Source: Haplodiscus bocki
Taxonomy: Eukaryota
NCBI GenBank assembly: GCA_965655095.1
Contig: OZ296653.1
Coordinates: 36,146,001-36,210,000, forward strand
DNA length: 64,000 nt
Direction: 5' to 3'
Shown: piece after piece, positions 133-42,788 of the stretch
How the letters are laid out: each line of letters begins with the position of its first letter
Position numbering within the stretch: position 1 is the first letter of the stretch
Made by a program: the position numbers and the translations under genes
The notes under the pieces: generated by a model
The model's input: the letters and a program-made list of their open reading frames with translations, nothing else
Told to the model about the DNA's origin: nothing
The model's database searches: none

Positions 133-2529
133 CGCAGATCTCCTTTCAGGATCACAACACTGCTATACATCTGGACAGTACTTTGCATTGCAAACACCAT
201 ACAGTACTCGACTGTCAATAAACAACAGCTACCGGAATTTGAACGAGGAGCCGCTTTCATCTTTAAATACCAAGTTGTGACTTCCGAAAGTGAGAGCCAA
301 GTCCGACTATTCTCTCCTTTCCCGACGCTCCCAGATGTTAACATTGACAGCGTGCGTGTTATCGTTCACGAAAGCAATGAGAAGCTCTCACACTTGCAAC
401 ACCGCGTCACACAGGCAGGGTGTAATAACAATACGTTCAATGAGTCTCATATACCAGTTTTACAACAAATGGACAACATGTACAATCATCTTAAGACTGA
501 AATTCACGAAGCACAATCTGAACTCAACACTCTGAGTGCCATTGCAAAATCCTTCTTTCCACCAGAATCATCACCGCGAACCTCTGGACAAAGACGTTCA
601 ACTGCTGAGGAAGAACCTCACAACAGAACACGACGGCTCATTGGTGCTGTCGCAGCCCTAGCCGCGGGTACAGGATTCATCTTGGGAGAACCAATTAAAG
701 ATGTAGCATGCAATGCACTCTCCATTTTTAATCTTTGTGATTCTACTGAAGAATTAGAACGAGAACTCGCTCAAGTGACCAAAAAACAAAAGACACAACA
801 ACAGGCATTTCAGATGGTCCAAGATAAGAACAACGAAAAACTTGCATTACTTAGAGACGAAATTCGCCTAACCCAGGAAAGTGTTGAACGAATTAAAAAC
901 GACACCTACCTACGTATCTCGTATATGCTCGAGCGTATATACAGTCTTGAAGATGCGTTTCGATGTTATCAATTCGAAAGTGCGTACCGCCACTTTCTCC
1001 AGTCTTCACAACTGTATTTATCACAAATCGGCACTTTGTACACTCATTTCAAAGCTTTTCGTGCAGCATTTTACGCGTATAGAAACAATTTCTTTTCAAT
1101 CATCTCATCTCTCGCTACTGGACATATCACACCACAATTCCTACTCCCCACTCAACTTGCTACAATAGTACAGGAATTAGCCGCTGAAGAATTTCGGAAA
1201 GGTAGCAAACTGACACCTGCTATACCATCGGGATTCGACGCTATCTATTACGAATTGCAAATCGTACTAGAAGTCACAATGTTACCTAAAGGCATCTCTT
1301 TTGTACTCGGCATTCCAATGAACTCTAAATCCGCGACCTATAATGTTTTCCAAGCCGAACCTCTATACCAACCCAATGACGACGGCAAAACGGCATCACT
1401 TTACCAATTTCCAAAACCCTACGTCGCGATTGCAACAGACAATACGAATTTCGCAGAGTTAGCCGCGTCTACGCTACAACAATGCACGGGCAGTAATCGA
1501 ATCAAACTGTGCCGCAAAGGCTTTTCGACTACTACTGATGAAACGCTTCTCTGTTTGACGTCGTTGTATTTTAATCAAGACATACCAGCACTCCGAAATT
1601 GCCCCGTTTCCTCTGTCTTTCTCCCGGACGCCCCACAGGCAATCTACTTGGCAAACGGCGTCTATCACCTCATTTCACGGCACCCTACAATCGACATTAA
1701 GAACGATAGCCGATCAAATGGACTCAGTTTGTCTACGATCGATTGTCACGCGTGCGTCCTTCGACCAAGTTGTGAAAGTACTCTTTACATCAATCAAGGC
1801 GATCTTGTTCTGTCACCCGATATGGACGCATGTAAAACAACTCCGGAACCGTACATTGCAACAATCAAACTGGCACCACCTTTGAATCAAGTTTTTCAGA
1901 ATGTCCCTTTCGATCGACTTAACTTTCCAAGTTACTCAATCGGTGCCGCTCGGAAATCAATTCTTGAGAGCGTACAATTGGAACTGACTGAAATTCCAGA
2001 CGTTAGACGAATGGACCCAGAAACTTTGCAAAAATTGACAGAACCAATTGTAGCACACTACACGTCTCTCAATCCTGCAACAGAAGCCGCACTTGACAAA
2101 TTTGTACCGGCGAAAACTTCATTCTTAATCGCAGGCGGATCAATCGTACTCTCTTTATTTTTGTTTTTACTTAACTTTCCACTCTTTCACAGACAGGCAC
2201 GTGCACTTTGCTGTGCCCCACGTCGTTTCTTCAAGAATAAATCTGGCCAATTTATTCATGTCACGAACGACATCCAACCAGACTCAGACTCTTCATTTCT
2301 AATTTTGACTCGTGAGGAATTCACTGCACTACGTGCTCTTGCTAAAGAAGCCTTACTGAAGACTGAAGCTAACGCACCGTTTGTTTACTCCGCCGAAGAT
2401 GAAGAAAAACTGTACCCGGACGTCACCGCACCAACCAGAACCATTCGTACAACACCTCCCTTGGTTCTGACCACCTTCACTCCAGCTCCGGTACCTCACG
2501 TCGACACCACACAAACTACATCAGCCTAA
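133..2529 (+). CDS. env: Envelope (class I fusion, baculovirus-F/errantivirus-env/paramyxovirus-F-like) glycoprotein of an LTR retroelement; open frame begins after TAA 130-132, no ATG before the signal peptide
   Basis: Frame is open 133-2529 (track ORF 277-2529 is its GTG-started part). Contains a hydrophobic signal-like segment ITTLLYIWTVLCIANT (151-198), furin site RTRR (625-636) followed directly by a fusion-peptide-like LIGAVAALAAGTGFILG (637-687), a heptad-rich helix (TEELERELAQV...ERIKND), a Cys-rich mid region (LQQCTGSNRIKLC; CLTSLY...RNCPV; CHAC...PSC), N-glycosylation sequons (NNT, NES, NRT, NDT, NDS), a TM segment FLIAGGSIVLSLFLFLLNFPLF (2122-2187), a juxtamembrane CC and a ~110-aa tail. 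Confidence 0.88.
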   Translation, partial: RRSPFRITTLLYIWTVLCIANTIQYSTVNKQQLPEFERGAAFIFKYQVVTSESESQVRLFSPFPTLPDVNIDSVRVIVHESNEKLSHLQHRVTQAGCNNNTFNESHIPVLQQMDNMYNHLKTEIHEAQSELNTLSAIAKSFFPPESSPRTSGQRRSTAEEEPHNRTRRLIGAVAALAAGTGFILGEPIKDVACNALSIFNLCDSTEELERELAQVTKKQKTQQQAFQMVQDKNNEKLALLRDEIRLTQESVERIKNDTYLRISYMLERIYSLEDAFRCYQFESAYRHFLQSSQLYLSQIGTLYTHFKAFRAAFYAYRNNFFSIISSLATGHITPQFLLPTQLATIVQELAAEEFRKGSKLTPAIPSGFDAIYYELQIVLEVTMLPKGISFVLGIPMNSKSATYNVFQAEPLYQPNDDGKTASLYQFPKPYVAIATDNTNFAELAASTLQQCTGSNRIKLCRKGFSTTTDETLLCLTSLYFNQDIPALRNCPVSSVFLPDAPQAIYLANGVYHLISRHPTIDIKNDSRSNGLSLSTIDCHACVLRPSCESTLYINQGDLVLSPDMDACKTTPEPYIATIKLAPPLNQVFQNVPFDRLNFPSYSIGAARKSILESVQLELTEIPDVRRMDPETLQKLTEPIVAHYTSLNPATEAALDKFVPAKTSFLIAGGSIVLSLFLFLLNFPLFHRQARALCCAPRRFFKNKSGQFIHVTNDIQPDSDSSFLILTREEFTALRALAKEALLKTEANAPFVYSAEDEEKLYPDVTAPTRTIRTTPPLVLTTFTPAPVPHVDTTQTTSA

Positions 2530-2544
2530 GTTTCACTCCAAGTA

Positions 2545-3025
2545 ATGTATCATAGTGTCTATTGTACAAAGTTCACCACGTAACATAGGTAAGTATCCAA
2601 AAAGTAAACGCCTCTTCGGAGCCTCTGTGTGGCACTAGCGTGCCCCCCTCTAATCCGTCATTCCGTCCATTTCAGCCTGCATCAATGTTTCATTTGCCTC
2701 CAAGGCGATCACCTGGTCTCTCCCCGAGCCACACGCTGTCCATTTTGTTGCCAACCCTTGGCTTTTGTCCAAAACTTCCTTCAGCCCCATGTGCTCAACT
2801 TGCTCCTTTGCCCCTGCCGTTGCTCATTGCCATAACCCCCAATTTATAACTGGCCCCACTTCTACATCTCTTTGCAAACCCTGCTCCCAAACGTCATATT
2901 ACTTCACACACATTTGCCCTTCATGTGCTCCACGGAAACCAATTTCCTTTCATGAATTACCCAGATTTACTTTGTTGCGACCCCCGCATTCTCTTGTTTG
3001 CCCAACCTCCGCCTCAATTTTCTAA
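2545..3025 (+). pseudogene. Cys-rich zinc-binding (RING/B-box-like) accessory ORF downstream of env, probably two-exon (2545-2588, 2676-3025), with one in-frame TAA and one +1 frameshift
   Basis: ATG 2545; donor AG|GTAAGT at 2588/2589; branch-like CTAAT 2650-2654; pyrimidine tract and TTTCAG| at 2675 (87-nt intron). Reconstructed: MYHSVYCTKFTT*HS-LHQCFICLQGDHLVSPRATRCPFCCQPLAFVQNFLQP/MCSTCSFAPAVAHCHNPQFITGPTSTSLCKPCSQTSYYFTHICPSCAPRK..., with five CxxC pairs; frameshift most simply one extra C in CCCC 2785-2788. Confidence 0.55.
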
Positions 3026-3541
3026 ATTTTTTACTTTTCAACGTAGATACCCCAACCATGAGAAAAACAATTGAGACGATGATACGTAATAAACTTCAAA
3101 TTATAGTGACCGGCTCTTATAGCCCTTCAAAAATGTCTTGCTAACCTAATAGTTCTTATTAGTGCTTGGATCTTTTTAACTCAGTTCATCAGCGAACTCC
3201 ATTTGTAAGCTCAGCAGCTTCCTATTTGTGAGACGGTTTCCGCGTCTCCCCTTGAATATTTTAGCCTACCTTCTGCATCAATGACAACTTGTGATGGGTG
3301 AACTCACAACGTTCTAGCGGGTCATGTGCTTCACCTCTTCGATGACAGCCAATACCGCATACTCAGGGTCACACTTTTCTCTGGCCCGGCGATCCTAAAA
3401 AGGACAAACCATTCTACAAGTCGCAGTTTTTTTTTACGGACCCCTTCACAACTTTTCATGAGCGCTCCTCACATGGTCAATCAGTCAATCTTCTTGAACC
3501 CGTCAACGATGTCTCAGTTTAGTTTGTGGGACACAAACTTC

Positions 3542-3555: not shown

Positions 3556-4875
3556 TATGACAATCAGAAATTGTCAAAAGAAATAACATGAACGTTTTGA
3601 TAAACATGAACACTTTTAACTCGAACAATTTTGAACTACTTTTTCTATTCTAATTTTGGTGCTCACCTCTATTATTCTTAAATTAGATTGCACTTATCAT
3701 ACTTCTGATCACGCCAACATATCACGCCACCTTAGTCTAATAAAAGTGCAGAATTATTATTAAAATGACGATGATTTCTGGTGCTTTAACAATCTCTTGG
3801 AGATGGCTGCTACATGACAGCAACGTCCTGGAAACGCTTTGACAACCAACATTCCAGAACATTCCAAGGACGAACTCCAGAGACTTTTTACGCCATCGAT
3901 TGCACCAGATCGACAAAAATAGCCAAAAATCGTCAAAAGCACCAACAGGCGTGAAAATTCATCACGCCGATCGGGGTATAAAAGCCAGAGCTCCAAAATC
4001 AACTTTTCAGTGCTCAACTCGGTAATCTGAAAATCAACCTACGACGTTAGACGTCTTGTGAATGAATCTTCAAAACAAATAGCCAATTTCTATCTTCAAA
4101 TTTTCTGACGAATTCGAATCCCGTCTATTCAAAGAACACCCCAGAAGGATCAATTGGCTGTCTAGAAGATTTTGATCGTCCACATAAGTTTCCAATCATA
4201 ATGTCGTGAGTTCTATTAGTTTAATCTTATAATTTCTTTTGTAAAATACAATTTTGTTAAACCGTACCTTAACGAAAAGAAATTCAATCAACTTCATAAT
4301 TTTAGTTCTTTCACTTTTACCATAGCAAGCTCTAAACAGATCAAAATTTTTGTAACCCCAAAGTAGTTAAAACTACTTTTTCAATTCAATAGTAGTGAAG
4401 TATCCCAGACTCACTACTAACAAAACCATTTACGTGACGAGAACCTGAAACACACATCCGAAAGAACAGTAAAGATGAAATTTGTTCAGAGCTTGTTAAA
4501 ATTTGAGAAGATAGAAAGTCAGAACCACCACCACCATTAATCGAGATTATAAAATTTAGAATTAAGAAACAACTCGTTTGCATAGAGTTGATAGTATTCC
4601 AAACCAAATTCACTCTATACCGTGCGGTGGGCTAAGTGACGGTAAGGTACCAGCGTAGCATATTGACCCGAACCAAGTAGAACCTGGAAGCTCTGCAGTA
4701 CGGAAGATTTGCATGGTTGTGAACTGAACGTCTTACGGTTCTGCCAAACACCATAGAGTGGATTATTTAAGACGTATAGTTAAGAAAGAATAAAATTCAG
4801 CCACCACCATTCAATACAAAAAAAGCAAGCCACTCGAGCAGAAAAAGAATATGAAAACACAACACACACGTCACA
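3556..4875 (+). mobile_element. Putative 3' LTR of the env-bearing retroelement (right end uncertain: GTCACA at 4875, or CGCAACA at 5938)
   Basis: Follows the PPT; T(A>G)TGAC...GTCACA would be inverted termini; internal TATA/Inr pair; AATAAA near 4789. The 5' LTR is outside the window, so no confirmation by direct repeat. Confidence 0.4.
3977..4011 (+). promoter_or_regulatory. Pol II core promoter in the putative LTR (TATA box + initiator)
   Basis: TATAAAA at 3977-3983 and TCAGT at 4007-4011, with the A 32 nt from the first T of TATA, which is canonical spacing. Confidence 0.6.
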
Positions 4876-5951
4876 ATAGTTATGAACGAACTTTATCCAT
4901 TCGCAACTCTGAATATTCGATCTCCAACAGTTTCCAGGTATTTTTCGCTCTGAGATAATACATGATTTCAGCTTTGTTTTTTGATTGTCTGTTATTCCTT
5001 TGTTTGATGGTGATATCTGTTTTAGAATCTAAATTACAGCGAATTCAATCTATTTCACCGCCAGATTAGTCGGTCAAATGACGTTGACTCATCAAAATTT
5101 TGTTACCTTCTCGACAAAATAGAACGCGTAAATAATCACAAGCTGCGCCTCAGCCTAAAAGACTGGTTTAAAAACTACTTAGGCAACACATTCATTCTTC
5201 CACCTATTCCACACATTGTGTTTTATACTAGCCTTGCGATTCCCCATTTAGGGAAATGCTTTAGTTCTTCAACTGAACCTCAACCTTACGTTTTATCCCT
5301 CCAATATTTTTCTAATTATCTTGTATCACAAGTGGCTTGCGGAAATACAGCAACATCACCTATGATGTCGGAAAATAGTAAATGGTTGACTTATTGAAAA
5401 GCGAATGTTTTCCTTTTAGTTTTAGAATTTTTGTAACTCGACGCAATGCCTTTTAGCAAAACAGTCACTCTTTTAGTGTGTTTCAATACCTAACCACTTT
5501 TGCTTGGGCGATTAAGATACAAAACGTTTCCGAGAAAGCTATCCAAAACAATTGGACTCTCTGCCGCTGACCTAATCAAATGATGTGTCCTCATCATCAA
5601 GTACTCTTACGTTTCCTTATCCCGAACAAAATAATCGGAACTGGGAGTTCAAAATCCAGAGCTTCACGTTCCACATTCGTTTTTCTCCGACAAAAACAGA
5701 CAACTCTGACGAATTTGTTGTACAAGCATTGTGGGACCTCACATAGAAAACAAGCGAACACATTTTGTTGGAGCGCATTCCAACTCCTCAAGGAGACTCT
5801 GCTCGAGACACTTCTGAGCACATATCACAAGACTGTGGAGTCTTAGGATCCCCATATTGGCTGAAATTCCTTCCTATGAGATAATCTTGTCTTTAAACTG
5901 TCCCACCAAAAGATATCTACAACGAGGAAGCCGCAACATGTAGGAAGAGGT

Positions 5952-13950: not shown

Positions 13951-16900
13951 TAGTGACCATCCATATTTTCCATAAGCTTTTTTACCGCGAGCGCTTGTAC
14001 ATGAAGATGGCATCATGGGATTGTTGTGTTTTATAATAATTCTGTTCCGGAGAACCTGATGTTTGCCCTGAGGAGACAATTTGTGATGTTCCGAGCAGTT
14101 CCGGAACAGAGTTTTTGGTGGGACGCGCTACATCCGATGCGGAGATTTTCAGCGCCTGGACAAATGCTCTAGTGGAGATTCCGTCACTTTTGTACAGTTT
14201 TCGTGCTTGTATTGAAAAAATTGGTACAGGTTATCATCGATTTCCTCTTTTGCAGGTCCAGCTGATGACAATCCAGATTTCTCCGGAGCTGGTGATGAGT
14301 CGACAGAGGCGAAGGTGACGAGTGACAGGAGACGGAAACACGTTGTTATCACGCGTCGTTTCGTGCCGTTATCGGGTCGGCAGCCAAGCCCAGTTGAGTT
14401 TGGAAGCCGCACCTGAAGCAGAGCATTGCTTGAGCAGGCTTTCGACGATAGTAATGATTAATTCAAATGAGGATGTTTTGAGTTTGGTTCCTTGAGGACT
14501 CCCCTTTCCGTTGAATTTTGTTTTAGAACACATTCCCGTTGAACCTGTAATTGCTCCAATCAATGCCACCAGGCATCAGTTGGTGATGCCGTGCCGCACT
14601 ATTTGCGCAGGAAGCGTTAATTAAGATCCACTGATGGGGCGTAAGTACTGTCGAGACATGTTCCATAGCTTTCGCACCTTTCCTTTCTTCATTGTATCCT
14701 TTCTGTTCACAGAGCTAGGTGCTGTTCGTCATCAAATGGGACAGCGTGTTGCACCTTCTAGCCCTCATGTTCTTGAAACCAGTGACACCAGTGGCGACGA
14801 ATCAGTGGCCAGCCAACCCCGTCGGCGTGTGCGTTCAAGTGGACGTACAAAATGCAGAAAGTGTGGGCGAGGGGCAGATGAAAAGGGCCAGTTTTTTGTT
14901 ACTGGTGCTACGGATTCCGTTGGCAATTACAGCCACTTCTACTATCGCATCTGCCGCAAAGACGTGTCGGTGTTGACACACGGCCTGCATGAAGTCCTTA
15001 GGCGCTTCCAAGGTACCGAACCTTTCCTTCGTGACCAGAGGCTGACACTGGAGAAACCTGGTTGGCGGGTATTGAACTTTGAGGGAAACACCTCGGTGAC
15101 AAAAAGATTCAGCGCCAACGAGAGTGCATTGTTCGAGGTCCTCTGGTCATTCGTGATCGATACGCTTCTTTAGCTGGGGATCCTATTGTTGACGATTCCG
15201 GGACCTCAGATGCCACATTGCCAGTCCTTGCAAAGGTGTCATCTCTGATCGAAGTGTTGTGACTGGGCAGCTTTTACGCGTTGGTTCACCAACTGTGGGC
15301 ACAAATCACCCTGACAGCCAGCCGGGTGAAGGATGATGTGACGTGGTCCCGCAATGAGGTGCTGGTTTGTAATTTCCTTGTTCAATATTTCTACGTATTC
15401 ATGTGCATTGGTTTCTGGTGTTGTGTTTCATTCGAATAATTTGAATGGGAGGTACCCCCGCATCCTCTCTCGTGTGTCTGGTTTGGTGAAATTGTATGGA
15501 TAGTGCAGCATCGAATTTGAGGAGCGCAGGCCAGAGGTTTGGCAGATGGTGCGGACGTGAGAGAGGTCCATATTTCGGCGTGTTTGTATTGCGGTTTCAA
15601 CACCAATAGAATGCTTGAGGCCACCATGTTGGGGAAGCTTCTGGATGCTGCTGGTCCAGATGTGGCTGTAGTGTGTTTCCATGGCGGACCACATGTAATC
15701 ACCAAAGCCTTTGCCAGTTACTTTGGTAGTGGGTACCAAGCAAAACTTTTGGAATACCCAACGTTTGACCTCCGGTTGTTGAATCGTTGTTTTCAGCGGA
15801 CTGCGGCATCTGTGTATTAGAGCGTTGACCCATTCTCATTGACGGATTTTGTAGTGAATCGTTTGATGGACTCAATGACTGACGACTGGACGGCGTTTCG
15901 TCCCGCATTGGGAAGGGCCATCATCACAAACGACCTCTCGGTTCCAGACCTAGTCAATGTGGTAGGTTACATCATTGGGGTATGGCCGCTAATGGTGTCA
16001 TACCCGAAAGAGACCGGGCCAAAGGAAGATGGAGATAGTCTTGTGGTAAGGTCTTCCATTTTGGCTAGCCACTTTTGCGACTTTACATTGTATTCATTGC
16101 TGCTTTGTTTTTTAGAAGAAGGGGATGGACGGTATCTGTACCTGGATCAGCTTGCCCGCATGAAAATCAGACTGTTTCAGCTTCTTCTCAAAATCTGTAC
16201 GTATTTTCGTCACCCTTTCCTTTACATTATGCGTTGGTTAGGTAGCAGATCCGGTTCGGTTCCCGGAAAATCTCTAGGAACGCACTAGTAATGTTCCTCA
16301 TTGGTTCCTTGTTTAGTTTTCATGATGTTCCATGCACTTTGGTCTCGTTTGCGTAACAGTGGTGTTGTTTTTAAGCCTGTGACGTATAATGTTGTTTCAG
16401 TTGCCAACATTTTCTTGCATCCCCAGACTGCGAGTGAATACGGCTATCACTGTTTGGCGAGTTGGCTCGGTTCATCTAATGCCTCCTCCAGCAGGTCAAG
16501 CAAATGTCTTTTTTGCCTCTCGTGGAGCAGTTGGATCAGTATGTTTTGGCCAACCATTCCAGGTTCCCCTCAATTGCCGATGAAGAGTTTTTGTCGGGGA
16601 CTCATGTGGTGATAGCTGTCACTAAAGTTGGGAGCTTTTATTTGAACAAAGAGTTCCGTCGGGAGGCCCGGCAGTTCCTGGAGGAATATACCAATTCAAT
16701 GCTTTCTAATGTCGCTGCACGATCCCACATCGGGCAGCGACTAAGCTGTTTCTGCCATACAATCGTCATTGGTGGAGACGACCACGCGCCGGTTCATCTG
16801 TTTGGGTTGTTGCTTGATGGGCTCCGGGAGAAGGGGTGGGTTGGAGGCAGCGATGTAGAAGCTTGAAGTACTGAGTACCAATCATTGTCCAAGGAAAACG

Positions 16901-18177: not shown

Positions 18178-19031
18178 TCATACCGCAGGGATTGAAAGGA
18201 GTAGGGCTGGGTCAATCGGAACGCGTTTCCGCATCAGTATCCATGGGGGAATACGTCTCCCCTCCGTCACATAATCCGTCTGTTTGCGGAAAAAATTGTG
18301 GGAATCCTCTCGTGAAGTTCCTCGAGTGATACTCGTTTCATCGGCTGTTAAATCAGATTGTACTGCAGTCTCGGATGAATTGGGTGTCGCAGCATTATCG
18401 TAATCCTTATCAAAGGTTGGCTTTTCGTTTTCACATTCCCATGCTCTGGCGTACAAATCATCGTGTGTAAGCGTGTTTTCTGGGTCGCATTTCCATTTTC
18501 GTGGCGTCATTTGTACATCGGGTATGGGTTGTTTGGGTGTGAATTGGAGTAGTGTCATACGATGAAGCGCTTGTGTTTTATCTGTACCGGTTTTGCAAAC
18601 CAAAAAATTGATATTTGGTAAGGCCTTTTCAATAATGTCAGGCGCAATCCACCAAAATTCTGTAGAGGAAATTTTGGTTCCTTGGTGGCCTGCTTTATGT
18701 TCTAAGACATACACATAATCTTTCTCTTTCAGATTCGAGGCATTTGCTTCTTTTTCATAGTACCCCTTGTACTTGATGTAAGATCGGAGGGCACTCTTTC
18801 GGACATCTGGATAAATCATTTCTGTCTGTTTAAACACATTTTGAGCAATTTGTGAATTTGGCATGAGTTTTTCTTGCGCGAACGTATGCCCATTTTCAAA
18901 TGTAGGACATTACAAGGAACGCGTCCATGAAACACTCTGCTAGGTTCATAGCTATTACTTGCATAATAAGATGTGTTGTAATTAAGGACCACAATGCTGA
19001 CATATTTATGCCGTTTTTTTCCAATTGCCAT
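18178..19031 (-). pseudogene. pol: Gypsy integrase C-terminal remnant (core end + GPY/F-like region)
   Basis: KYVSIVVLNYNTSYYAS..EPSRVFHGRVP.NVL.LKMG, then YIKYKGYYEK...LKEKDYVYVL...WIAPDIIEKALPNINFLV...LHRMTL, typical of Gypsy IN C-termini; frameshift near 18.83 kb. Confidence 0.8.
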
Positions 19032-28187: not shown

Positions 28188-29941
28188 TGTGATGTGTCTC
28201 TTCCTGCTCTGGATCATTTAGGTTAGTGGTGTGACAGGCAGAGAACACCACTTCGGGACAGGGATTGCCTTGGGAAAGATCCCCAGTGGGTTTCCAGTTT
28301 TCTGCAATGTTGTTCCTGGATGTTCCCGGAAGAACTACGGAACAAGTCTGAACTTATGGGTTCAGAAAAAATTCATCGAGTTTAGACAAGGCACCCAAAA
28401 TGCGCGACTCCGTCCGGCTAAATTCTTGGGAAAGTTTTTTAGTGATCCTCCCTTCAATTTCTTCACAAACCTGGTTGATGACCTCTTCAGCCATCCCGGA
28501 TTAAGTGTGTCTTGTGACTGATTGTTCCTTGTATTTTCTGGTGTTTTTCTCGAAACTGCCTCTAACTTTCTTTTTCCTCAGAGTTGCCATGATTCTGAAG
28601 GAAAAGCACTGTCAGTTCTGAAGATTGAATTTTTTTATTTGTAACAAAAAGGTCGATCTCCTCTATTATGAGGGAAAAGTTTCTTCAACAAACGCAAACA
28701 GTTAATGATGTCAAATTTAGTACAATGGCAAAAGGTTACAATTTATAAAACAATAATAGTACTTTCGTTTCTCCTTTTTATACCTTTTCCTTGGCGGGTA
28801 ACATAATTGTTTACACGCCAATTCAAGGTACAAATAGGGAAAAGTACTTCAATCATATTATCTATATAGGAAAAATGCCGACTCTGGCGGGGAAAAACAC
28901 CTCTCCGTCCATTTCTTTTTTCATAGATTGCGTCTTTTCCATCTTTCGACAGAAAAATGTACGGGTCTAATCCGTCAGAAATGGACATCAAAGTGGTTAT
29001 TCCCGCTTGGATACAATAAAATTTAACATAAACAAAAGATCAAAAAGATCTTCCATAGGAGGAAATCACTGAAAAAAGCATCAACCATAAGTAAATTAGA
29101 TAAAAATAAATAAATAAAAAGTACAGATAAAGTTCATGTTTAGATGTGTTTACATGTTGCATCGATTAAAACCACTGCTGGGAACAAAACCAAGTTTCTC
29201 CTAGTCCGTTCCTTATTTCTACTAGCCGGTTCCCCATTTTGGCCGAAGCGTTCCGGAACGACCACGTAACCGCTTGTAGTACTGCTCTCCGCAGTGCTAC
29301 TGAGTAGAATGAAATGGGTGGCTATGTAACCGTTCCATGTTTGTCCAAAATGACACAGCGTAGTAGCATAGCGGATTGGATTAAATTCTAGTGACGTCAC
29401 CAGATTGGTTGCGACGGAACACATACGGAACAAACATTCACTTTTCAAGTCACGCTCTGTATTATAGCTGTACTAAACACTGCAAACTCATTAACACTCT
29501 CGATCTTGATTTAAATTACTGCACAAGGCAATTTCGAAAGGTTGATTTATATATTATTTAACCAAATTAATTATAAAATAGCACCTATTAATGATATAAA
29601 TAAACAGTAGGGAAAGTAAATGAATATCCGTTTGTTCCGTAGTTGCTCCGTCTCAATCCGGATCAGTACACCATAATTCCACGTATAAGATACGTACCTT
29701 TACATGAAGTGAATAATATGGAACGATACGTAACCACTACGTATGGTTTACGTGAATTACATATATGTGCATGGGGTTGATACGTAACTACTACGTGTCA
29801 TTTATGTACAAATAATGAAAATAATGTAATACATATGTATGAAGTTTTCAGTCTTGAGTTTATAGTTTGTTGACGATGAGCCAGCCTGGTGTGTCGGTTC
29901 AGGGATCGACTGTCCACAAACCTCGCAAACGTGCTGCGACA
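28188..29941 (-). mobile_element. Solo LTR (family A, copy B) including the gag 5' end
   Basis: Minus strand TGTCGCAG...CATCACA; TSD GCTTG (28183-28187)/ACTTG (29942-29946); homologous to 38242-39806; ATGGCAACTCTGAGG at 28590 (MATLRKK..., frameshifted). Confidence 0.85.
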
Positions 29942-38241: not shown

Positions 38242-39806
38242 TGTCGCAGTATAACCGCGAAGCCTACGTACATTAAGAAAGAAAAGGACATCCCCAGATT
38301 GCCTGAAATTTAGAAGAAACTTTATCAATACTTTAGACTTTTCTATTTCCATTCACATAACAATATTGCAGTAATTTCATTGCTTTTACATGTAGTGGAT
38401 ACGTATCAAACACGTACCACTCCCCAGTATATTTTCATACAAATTCTACGTATTTATACGTAGCACTCCGTGTACTGAACCAGATTGGGACGCAACCTTT
38501 ACGTGGCGAACACGTACCTAACTAGCAGTATTTTGTTACGTGCGCGGTACGTGGCTACCGATCTGGTGACGTCACAAAATTCTCAGCCAATCCGCTGTGC
38601 TTTTGCGCTGTTTCACTTTGGTCGGCTACGTGCGTCTACGTGGCCACCAGATTCATTTCTCCTCAGTAGTACTGCGGAAGGCAGTGCTACAAGCGGCACG
38701 TAGCCGCACGTGCCACCACGGCCAAAGTGTGCCGTAAGCTAGTAAAAACGTGGAACGGGCTAGGAAAACGCCTAGTTTCGTTCCGAAAGTGGATTAAATC
38801 GATGCAGCAGTATTACCAAGCAAGTAATTATGAATTTCTGTGATTATGTTACTGTATTTTAGTTAATTTTACTGCATTTTTCATTACTTTCCTCTTATGG
38901 AAAACCTTTTTGATTACTTGTTTATGTTATTATTTATTGTGTCGGCGGGGGAATAATCACTTCGATATCCATTTCCGACTGATCAGACACGTATATTTTC
39001 CGTCGAAAGATGGAAAAGACGCGGTCTGTAAAGGAAGAAATGGAGGGAAAGTTGTTTATTTCCCGCCAGAGTCGGCATATTTTCTTTGTAATTATTATGA
39101 TTAAAGTACTTTTCCCTACTTTGTACCTTTACTTGGCGTGTAAACAATTATGTTTCCCGCCAATGAAAAGGTATAAATAGGAGAAACGAAAGTACTAGGA
39201 GGAGATCCTTAATATCACTTTGTATATCAGTTGACTGTACTGATTGCGACTAGTTGTTTATTTTAAAGAATAACATTTTGTTATAATCTCAAGTTTATTA
39301 ACAAATACAAAATAATTCAGTCTTCAGAACTGCGTAGCATTTTCCCTTCAAAAAGATGGCAACGTTGAGAAACAAACGAAAGTTGGCAGCCGTTACAAGA
39401 GAAACACAAGAGGAAAATCCTAGGAACGGCCAGTCACGAAACACGTCCGTTCCTAGAATTAACGAGGAATATATCACACAAGTTTCTGAGGAGATTGAAG
39501 GCAGAGTCAGTAAAAAACTGTCCCAGGAGTTCAGCAGGACAGAGTCCCGCATTTTGGGTGCTCTGTCTAAATTAGACGAATTTCTCTTGAACCAACAGAT
39601 ACGGACGCATTCCGAAACCGTTCCGGGAACATTCCGGAACATAAACGTGGAAAACCAGGGAACGAATGAGGACGACTCCCAGAGTGATCCTCATCCTGAA
39701 GTGGGACCCTCCGTCTGTCAATCCCGTCATTCAATTGACTCAGACACAGGCGAGACTCATGACACGATGACAGGAGTTATAGAACAGACTTCCAAGGGTC
39801 CTCACA
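38242..39806 (+). mobile_element. Solo LTR (family A, copy A) including the first 150 codons of gag
   Basis: TGTCGCAG...CCTCACA with perfect 5-bp TSD AACAC (38237-38241 and 39807-39811); homologous to 28188-29941 (rc) and 41155-42788. Confidence 0.92.
38940..39180 (+). promoter_or_regulatory. LTR promoter module: E2F-like sites, forkhead site, TATA
   Basis: GGCGGGGGAA 38944, TTTCCCGCC 39059-39067 and 39153-39161, GTAAACA 39140-39146, TATAAAT 39172-39178; CRE TGACGTCA and CCAAT further upstream (~38566-38591); conserved in copies B and C. Confidence 0.6.
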
Positions 39807-39817
39807 AACACAAATGA
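39356..39817 (+). CDS. gag: Truncated gag-like N-terminus (MATLRNKRKLAAV...) carried inside a solo LTR; last codons and stop come from flanking DNA
   Basis: 153-aa ATG ORF; homologous starts at 28590 (-) and 42383 (+); the LTR ends at 39806. The gag assignment is inferred from position behind the LTR promoter. Confidence 0.6.
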   Translation: MATLRNKRKLAAVTRETQEENPRNGQSRNTSVPRINEEYITQVSEEIEGRVSKKLSQEFSRTESRILGALSKLDEFLLNQQIRTHSETVPGTFRNINVENQGTNEDDSQSDPHPEVGPSVCQSRHSIDSDTGETHDTMTGVIEQTSKGPHKHK

Positions 39818-41154: not shown

Positions 41155-42788
41155 TGTTGCAACACACCTGCGAAGCCTGCGGTCAACCCTTGCCTGCAAA
41201 AAAAACGTCTCAAGACTCAAAATGAACCTCAGACTTCCATCTTTGATTTATTAACACTCATATATATTTACAATTATTGTACATGTAAGCTGATCGGTAT
41301 TATGTACAGATCACCCTATTGAACTGATGCAGACTAGGATGGAACTGTTAAAGAACAAATGAACCTGCACAGAGCTTTACCATTACAAAGGTGCAATTTT
41401 TTTGAAAATTTTTTTGAATTTAATGTAAAACCACCTTTATGTGCGATTAATTTGATTGCCTGCAATAAAAGATGTTTAGGACAGTGCAGTCTATTACTTG
41501 AGCTAGATTAACAGCATGACTAAAACCAACATGGAAAACTCCAAGAGTGAATTTTTGTTCCGTACTTGTTCCGTCGCTACTAGTCTGGTGACGTCTTAAC
41601 AATTCCGATCACTCGGTGACGCCGTAATACTACACTGAATAAGGAGTCAATCCGTATCCGCTCCTACTTTGTGCTTAACTTGAATGACTTTAACTGTCAC
41701 TACTAGTTGATACGAATAATCTCCGGAGACTACTAGTAGCTACTGGCCAGAACGAGGAGCAAACTAGTAGAGCGACTAATTTCTCCCCATTTATGGCAAT
41801 GACTACCGATGCATTAATGAAAACACTACACAAGAGATGTCATAAATACTTTCACTTTTATCATCAATTTTTGTTTTTTTTTCCATAGATGCTGCAAAAA
41901 TCAACAACTCTTCATTTTTTCAGATTAGGGATGCAATTAATTTTTGCAATCATGGAATGTACACTATTTTCCTTGTAAAAAAAAGTCGGCGCGGGAATAA
42001 GCACTTTGATGTCCAATTCTGACGGATTAAGTCTGTCTTTTTTCTGTGGAAAGATGGAAATGACGCGTCCTATGAAGAAAAGGACGGATAAAAAAGGTGT
42101 TTCCTTCCCGCCAGAATCGTCATTTCCGATTTGTAAGTTGTAAATGAAAGTACTTTTCCCTATTTGTACATTGACTTGGCGCGTAAACATTTATGTTTCC
42201 CGCCAAAGAAATAGTATAAACAGGAAAAATAAGTGCAAAAACAGAACAAATAATTGTATTAATGCTGTAACGCTGTTATTGTCTTTCCTGAAAATTTGAC
42301 TCTGCCATGTTTCCCAACTTTTACAAATTAATAATTTTCATTTCTGTCCTAATACTTTGGTGACTTTTTACCCTCTTCAAATATGGCAACTCTGAGGAAA
42401 CTAGGAAATTTAACAGCCATCAGCAAAGGTATTCTTGAAGATTATGCCAGGAATGATCAGGCTCGAAACACAAATTTTCTGTGAATTCAGGAAGATTATA
42501 TTACTCAGGTGTCAGAAAAAAATTGGGGATAGAGTGACAAGAAGAACTGTCTCAGGAGTTCTGTAGGACAGAAAGTCGCATTTTGGGCCCCTAATCAAGA
42601 CTAGGAGAACTTCATCTGAGCCCACAAGCCCGAGTTCACTCCAGGTCCGTTCATGAGACATCACGGATTTCAAACAGAAAAAAAAACAGGGAGCAAATGA
42701 GGACCGCTCCCAGAACGATCCTCATCCTGATGTGGGTGTCTCTCTAAACCAATCCACACAGGATATAAGCCAGAAAAAACGCCTTACA
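41155..42788 (+). mobile_element. Solo LTR (family A, copy C) including the gag 5' end
   Basis: TGTTGCAACACACCTGCGAAGCC aligns with the copy A start; promoter block 41.95-42.23 kb homologous; ATGGCAACTCTGAGG at 42383; ends CCTTACA at the homologous position. TSD not recognisable. Confidence 0.75.

Follow-up and report, generated by a model that had tools for sequence, protein, structure and literature searches.

The window (the whole 64,000 nt analysed here, from Haplodiscus bocki contig OZ296653.1) starts inside an LTR retroelement, a young Ty3/Gypsy element with gag, pol and env, of which it carries the 3′ half. The stretch directly behind env is probably the decayed first gene of a four-ORF post-env array (ORFs a to d) of an F-type Ty3/Gypsy element, in whose relatives this gene would encode a leader-spliced RING protein, likely an E3 acting against host defence. 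Judged from its sequence, the stretch in the window is a broken relic of a gene that is real at the level of the family and dead in this copy.

Table 1 Features of the element in and next to the window (window positions unless a locus is named).
Feature	Position	Strand	Details
5′ LTR	L031:2423-3746		Upstream of the window; ATAG target-site repeat flanks the LTR pair
env main exon, likely F-type, without ATG	150-2529	+	Starts at phase-2 acceptor 149/150; stop 2527-2529
Non-coding spacer	2530-2675	+	Donor-like sites 2542 and 2589; branch-like CTAAT 2650-2654; RING ORF acceptor 2675/2676
RING remnant of ORF a	2676-2775	+	First and last CxxC retained; loss of 22 codons (H,H,C,C) near 2705-2716, from tblastn and DNA alignment with unbroken relatives
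Net one-base frame shift	2770-2785	+	Between RING remnant and second finger
Second Cys-rich finger remnant of ORF a	2783-2956	+	CxxC-x7-HC-x4-C-x9-CxxC-x11-CxxC in relatives
Tail fragment of ORF c (second RING gene)	3000-3083	+	tblastn 43% over 28 aa, E 2e-4
Remnant of ORF d	3265-3514	+	Phase-2 acceptor 3264/3265; stop 3299-3301
3′ LTR	3556-4876	+	TATA 3977; Inr-like TCAGT 4007; AATAAA 4789
Predicted leader, LTR copy	4201-4211	+	ATG-TC/GTGAGT: ATG plus 2 nt, donor GTGAGT (phase 2)

The element and its post-env region in the window

Together with the upstream neighbour, locus L031, the element reads 5′ LTR, then gag, pol and env, then 3′ LTR (Table 1). Domain searches identified Retrotrans_gag and zf-CCHC in its gag (L031), and pol, also in L031, carries protease, RT, RNase H, a macro-like domain and integrase in that order, so that LTRs, gag and the PR-RT-RNase H-IN arrangement of Ty3/Gypsy elements (Metaviridae) are all present. 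The macro match (PF01661, E 2e-4, just below the cut-off; L031:7927-8112, pol aa 847-908) lies between RNase H and integrase and could represent an ADP-ribose-related counter-defence module. A frame break common to this element and L002 splits pol in the integrase C-terminal region (L031:9239-9357), while several sibling copies have a single 1580-codon pol frame. The two LTRs of the window’s element are 99.6% identical over 1324 nt. A DNA search of the genome (1.5 Gb) gave at least 47 matches (40 scored of 656 candidates), and among the scored candidates the window and seven other places are 100% identical over 901 nt. Elsewhere in the window, open frames of 155-243 aa resembling decayed mobile-element pieces (14625-16288, +; 18178-18909, -; 39338-39817, +) are accompanied by repeats at 28757-29434, 38532-39724 and 42148-42755.

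The env frame comprises 798 codons (133-2529), and the context of its acceptor is identical in all 14 elements with the env 5′ end in view. RTRR, a hydrophobic stretch and a TM-like segment are visible in the window’s env, for which Pfam gave no env match and a PDB sequence search no match. It is nevertheless likely of F-type, because PF12259 is present on 2 of 116 env homologues. Window part 170-2066 is absent from six of the seven other 100%-identical siblings, whose LTRs are near-identical, and the corresponding joint, 169 to 2067, was also found in four sequencing runs that behave like genomic DNA; the remaining env deletions among related copies have other breakpoints. Among the 15 joints listed of about 231 in these runs, none coincides with a predicted splice, a result that has no bearing on splicing.

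The initial annotation placed the 5′ end of a near-intact accessory gene in the spacer behind env, with a coding exon from ATG 2545 to the donor at 2589 (44 nt), an 87-nt intron and two lesions private to this copy. The motifs themselves are there (ATG 2545, TAA 2581-2583, GTAAGT 2589, CTAAT 2650, TTTCAG 2675), as are the env stop, both phase-2 acceptors (149/150 and 2675/2676) and the frames 2608-2835 and 2654-3025 with five CxxC and HCH. A local exon of this kind would also fit the phase-2 spacing in the window and the retention of donor AG/GTAAGT at 2589 in 60 of 93 rows (with GT in most others), a conservation that counts against the explanation preferred here. However, an open phase-2 ATG frame was found in none of 88 copies, 86 of which have a stop in the segment, and the segment is 45 nt long in 63 of 88; several RING-complete relatives are without donor 2589 yet keep the acceptor; and the lesions, including the loss of half the RING ligands, are common to 32 of 32 near copies. 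The local exon is therefore very improbable. Nor is TAA 2581 a lesion of this copy, since the spacer that holds it is non-coding in 88 of 88 copies. The donor-like sites at 2542 and 2589 are conserved in most relatives despite the non-coding state of the spacer.

The five CxxC pairs are not the full motif: 66 nt (22 codons) that hold four of the eight RING ligands in unbroken relatives are missing from the window, as is one further codon. Eight ligands in one frame are not found in the window copy, and Pfam gave no RING match for it. The frame shift is not private either: shift and 66-nt loss occur together in 32 of 32 near copies, one of which has a further one-base loss, and the two Cys-rich frames stay separate in these copies. 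A separate 56-nt loss in the same RING core is present in five or six more copies. The remnants hold 33 distinct non-synonymous and 13 synonymous variants, versus 51 and 52 in the env tail (Fisher p 0.013), which indicates that selection in the window family is relaxed.

ORF b and most of ORF c were not detected in the window, while the ORF d remnant matches the ORF d of a relative (60% over 82 aa, E 5e-32); the window’s subfamily has lost two other accessory ORFs, and half of its copies have lost env. Six loci (L029, L030, L032, L035, L036 and L038) have a window-like broken ORF a and differ after window-equivalent 2984; L030 among them keeps the ORF b tail and full-length matches to ORFs c and d, and may be an intermediate stage or a recombinant. 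The split could alternatively be a new functional state, for example programmed +1 frameshifting or the use of an acceptor at 2784/2785 to express the second finger by itself. A phase-2 TTCAG is present at 2784 and the family in which the split is fixed is young and expanding, but pN/pS among near copies is 0.61 and 0.88 in the two ORF a remnants (0.88 in the second finger) versus 0.33 in env, and the neighbouring ORFs b, c and d are also lost or broken, making this reading improbable.

Unbroken relatives and the accessory array

Relatives in the same genome have an unbroken ORF of ~117-127 aa, without ATG, in the slot of the relic, encoding an MDM2-type C2H2C4 RING followed by a second Cys-rich finger. 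The older copy L041 has ~70 nt more than the window, reading H-x2-CxxC ahead of CPFC, and a search with its natural frame gave at least 150 scored matches among 738 genomic candidates, mostly stop-free. Fifty loci were examined (30 best matches plus 20 chosen lower down, mostly for open frames). The exact spacing, CxxC-x10-H-x6-H-x2-CxxC-x11-CxxC and then the second finger as in Table 1, is present in 26 of the 50, a share that is inflated because likeness to the RING protein or an open frame guided the choice of loci. The eight ligands (C,C,H,H,C,C,C,C) are each present in 21-23 of 23 sequences. Across 39 open copies (301 non-independent pairs), pairwise dN/dS is 0.21, or 0.27 without Cys/His codons, and 1.32-1.38 in the shifted frames of the same copies. 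Homologues of the stretch are under purifying selection, and the likeness goes beyond chance.

Pfam RING models match the first domain of ORF a at E 3e-5 (best) to 0.06, all below the cut-off, and no match of ORF a reached the curated RING threshold. Single comparisons gave E 0.002 with RNF168 and E 0.009 with the MDM2 RING, which has the same C2H2C4 order, and the nearest Atlas clusters are viral RING proteins (0.92; recognition 2174, below the bar of 2300). Ile6 (21/23), Leu8 (22/23), Pro44 (21/23) and Arg47 (22/23) are kept, at what are presumably E2-contact-type positions. The AlphaFold model of ORF a (pLDDT 37.6) is unusable. The RING half of the RING/B-box-like spacing proposed initially holds in relatives, but the B-box half found no support: in five sequences the second finger had no B-box match at E up to 10, and profile searches returned weak double-zinc-ribbon matches only. 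Its likeness to the first finger, as a tandem RING would show, is weak (Probab 13%). A search for homologues beyond the element family gave 24 matches, all ENA proteins resembling the same family; 13 ORF a matches were found among 1.84 billion representatives, with P0163 (E 1e-3) probably an unrelated RING. One metagenome contig (L115) carries ORFs a, b and c.

In fuller relatives, three further ORFs (b, c and d) follow before the 3′ LTR, each at a phase-2 YAG. Their dN/dS of 0.12-0.25 versus 0.8-2.1 off-frame (ORF d being cut by the locus end in many rows) shows that accessory ORFs located between env and the 3′ LTR are selected. ORF b (121 aa) has no Pfam or Atlas match; its model (pLDDT 74) gave no Foldseek match at E 0.001 in PDB or BFVD, and VIA Z values of up to 5.4 (rmsd 3.5, 85 aligned), mostly with PH-superfold chains, are a weak lead. 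ORF c is a second C2H2C4 RING, in short and long versions exchanged between families, one version ending in an Arg-rich tail. ORF d (119 aa) is a shortened J-protein relative, matching the J-protein profile at E 4e-5 in the window and down to 1.6e-16 in relatives. ORF b is apparently duplicated in L074 (L074:2323-2508), which together with the two interchangeable RING versions of ORF c (L052 versus L076) points to cassette shuffling.

Sister elements (env 42-50% identical; L116-L178 and L192-L215) have a single ORF of 320-375 aa in the post-env slot, with a coiled coil and a J-domain. In four sister families an HPD-bearing ORF of at least 250 aa is present at 25 of 30, 19 of 30, 12 of 12 and 8 of 12 loci, and in a fifth (3 loci) Pfam identified a J-domain ORF. 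Six sister ORFs were tested: all have HPD, four reach the Pfam DnaJ cut-off (best E 1.5e-14), identifying a J-domain, and in each a pyrimidine tract followed by a phase-2 YAG lies near the 5′ end. The N-terminus of the sister J-domain protein is the part to which ORF d is homologous (E to 1.6e-16), and in the midpoint-rooted env tree the RING family and three J families stand apart from two others (100/100). Homology and tree grouping, the latter as far as the midpoint root holds, suggest that the J gene is older and that the RING genes may have been inserted ahead of it.

Predicted leader splicing and possible function

No start codon lies near the 5′ end of env or of the RING ORF, and each opens at a phase-2 acceptor. 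A candidate leader is found in the LTR, ~200 nt downstream of the TATA and Inr-like site; the working copy would be that of the 5′ LTR (L031:3068). It is exact in 31 of 36 LTR rows, many of them near-identical, and among LTRs below 91% identity it ties as the most conserved of 96 11-mers (9/12 versus a median of 1/12). Its phase is compatible with all five acceptors (env, a, b, c and d), and a YAG is found one base ahead of the first conserved codon in 43/47 (a), 30/32 (b), 12/12 and 21/32 (the two versions of c, c1 and c2) and 38/40 (d) sequences. If phases were independent, five acceptors would be expected to share the phase of one donor about once in 243 by chance. A leader candidate was also found in one of three sister families searched, and no matching one in the other two. 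From these signals in the DNA, ORFs a to d are likely expressed by splicing from one two-codon leader in the 5′ LTR. The earlier proposal of a spliced accessory gene sharing its leader with env has thereby gained a candidate leader, while its exon and intron details have not stood. A short upstream exon is also reported to be spliced to env in Drosophila elements, for instance in the ZAM/Beagle/springer subclades (PMC12992720, available sections).

Under the preferred explanation, one LTR donor would be joined alternatively to the five acceptors. The ORF a RING would bind an E2 and, as an E3 ligase, ubiquitinate a host defence factor, with the second finger or a partner ORF binding the substrate; the array would serve an env-dependent, cell-to-cell life style and decay as lineages drift to env-less copying. 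On the best reading, the accessory proteins may be E3-like antagonists plus a chaperone cofactor serving the env-dependent route. Of the 32 near copies of the window, 16 have an env deletion (14, plus 2 with other breakpoints) in the 1.2-2.2 kb of env in view, versus 1 of 26 RING-complete loci, which counts for the env link, although the association does not consist of independent events because the copies are related. Against the link, the other 16 RING-broken near copies retain the middle of env in the part in view. The RING is also dispensable in cis, as the 56-nt-loss group includes young elements, 99.8% identical in their LTRs, in which the gag, pol and env frames are unbroken.

The main rival for function accepts the spliced gene but makes the RING an RNA- or protein-binding regulator of the element’s own splicing or of the export of unspliced RNA, in the manner of Rev or CERV. 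One strong donor with five acceptors requires an export route for unspliced RNA, one ORF c version has an Arg-rich tail, and CERV of Cer1 performs such export with an essential Cys loop (PMC10309623, available part). However, E2-type residues are conserved in ORF a, and recent multiplication has occurred in subfamilies whose ORF a is broken (the eight identical places), which speaks against an essential cis function unless it is supplied in trans. This role is considered rather unlikely. Element-encoded RING and J-domain proteins would point directly to restriction factors of an invertebrate-type host. Because one genome holds intact, partly deleted and env-less copies in a graded series, it can be tested how infectivity and accessory genes are linked.

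Comparison with known systems

Accessory antagonists are a hallmark of vertebrate complex retroviruses, while env-bearing Gypsy elements are usually described as gag-pol-env only. Complex retroviruses (lentiviruses, foamy viruses, fish retroviruses) have several small accessory genes between env and the 3′ LTR. The array described here resembles these in its small post-env genes, which one 5′ donor is predicted to supply through alternative splicing, but has a Ty3/Gypsy-type pol and accessory proteins without sequence relationship to theirs. Vif and similar retroviral antagonists recruit E3s of the host, whereas the RING domains here are encoded by the element itself. Among E3s of the MDM2/MDMX type, the MDM2 RING can be aligned with ORF a in its order of ligands (C,C,H,H,C,C,C,C), but the similarity is weak, a second finger follows, and there is no p53-binding or other MDM2 domain; viral RING proteins are the other likeness, through the Atlas clusters. 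Accessory ORFs are mentioned for fish foamy-like ERVs in the accessible text of PMC6431247.

Among the closest known systems are the errantivirus-like Ty3/Gypsy elements with F-type env (PMC13524379; PMC12992720). The elements described here share with them LTR-gag-pol(PR-RT-RH-IN)-env-LTR, repeated env loss and, by prediction, the joining of the env main exon to a short exon upstream (PMC12992720), as far as the available portions go. They differ from the present elements, which have up to four further selected post-env ORFs with their own acceptors and a macro-like domain in pol. The terms RING and accessory occur nowhere in the main text and seven supplements of PMC13524379 as obtained, nor does DnaJ in those supplements, and in the accessible part of PMC3383448 accessory genes are described as not shown for errantiviruses as of 2012.

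The initial statement that nothing of this kind is described in Metaviridae was too strong for accessory genes in general, as CERV (PMC10309623) and the sORF1/2 of MDG1 (PMC11952523) illustrate, although no description of this particular array was found in the literature searched. In the available account, CERV of the C. elegans element Cer1 is likewise a Gypsy accessory protein with a Cys-rich loop, made from a spliced mRNA and encoded before the 3′ LTR, but it is a single gene for RNA export, without a RING, and takes the place of env rather than following it (PMC10309623). MDG1 sORF1/2 (PMC11952523), ORF3 of rotifer Juno/Vesta (PMC5408684) and planarian Burro (PMC6431247) are further extra genes in Metaviridae. 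According to the sections available, sORF1/2 lie upstream of gag and are unspliced, ORF3 occupies the place of env, and Burro combines env with ubiquitination- and apoptosis-related domains located mostly within the polyprotein; none of the three, as there described, is a post-env array on a shared leader. Nor did the literature searched, in the parts accessible outside subscription journals and Repbase, contain RING or J-domain genes arrayed behind env on one common leader.

Accessory genes of Metaviridae are known singly, and a post-env multi-gene array on a shared leader would be the new part. Ordinary ORF annotation would not reveal an ATG-less array of this type, so many genes of the kind may be overlooked. 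More tentatively, at somewhat less than an even chance, a whole clade of endogenous retroviruses of invertebrate type (Metaviridae) may have evolved the complex-retrovirus design independently. A two-codon LTR leader would then feed env and a swappable host-manipulating cassette (a J-domain Hsp70 co-chaperone in the sister families, two RING E3s and a PH-like adaptor here) that counters defence during env-mediated infection and is shed as lineages go env-less.
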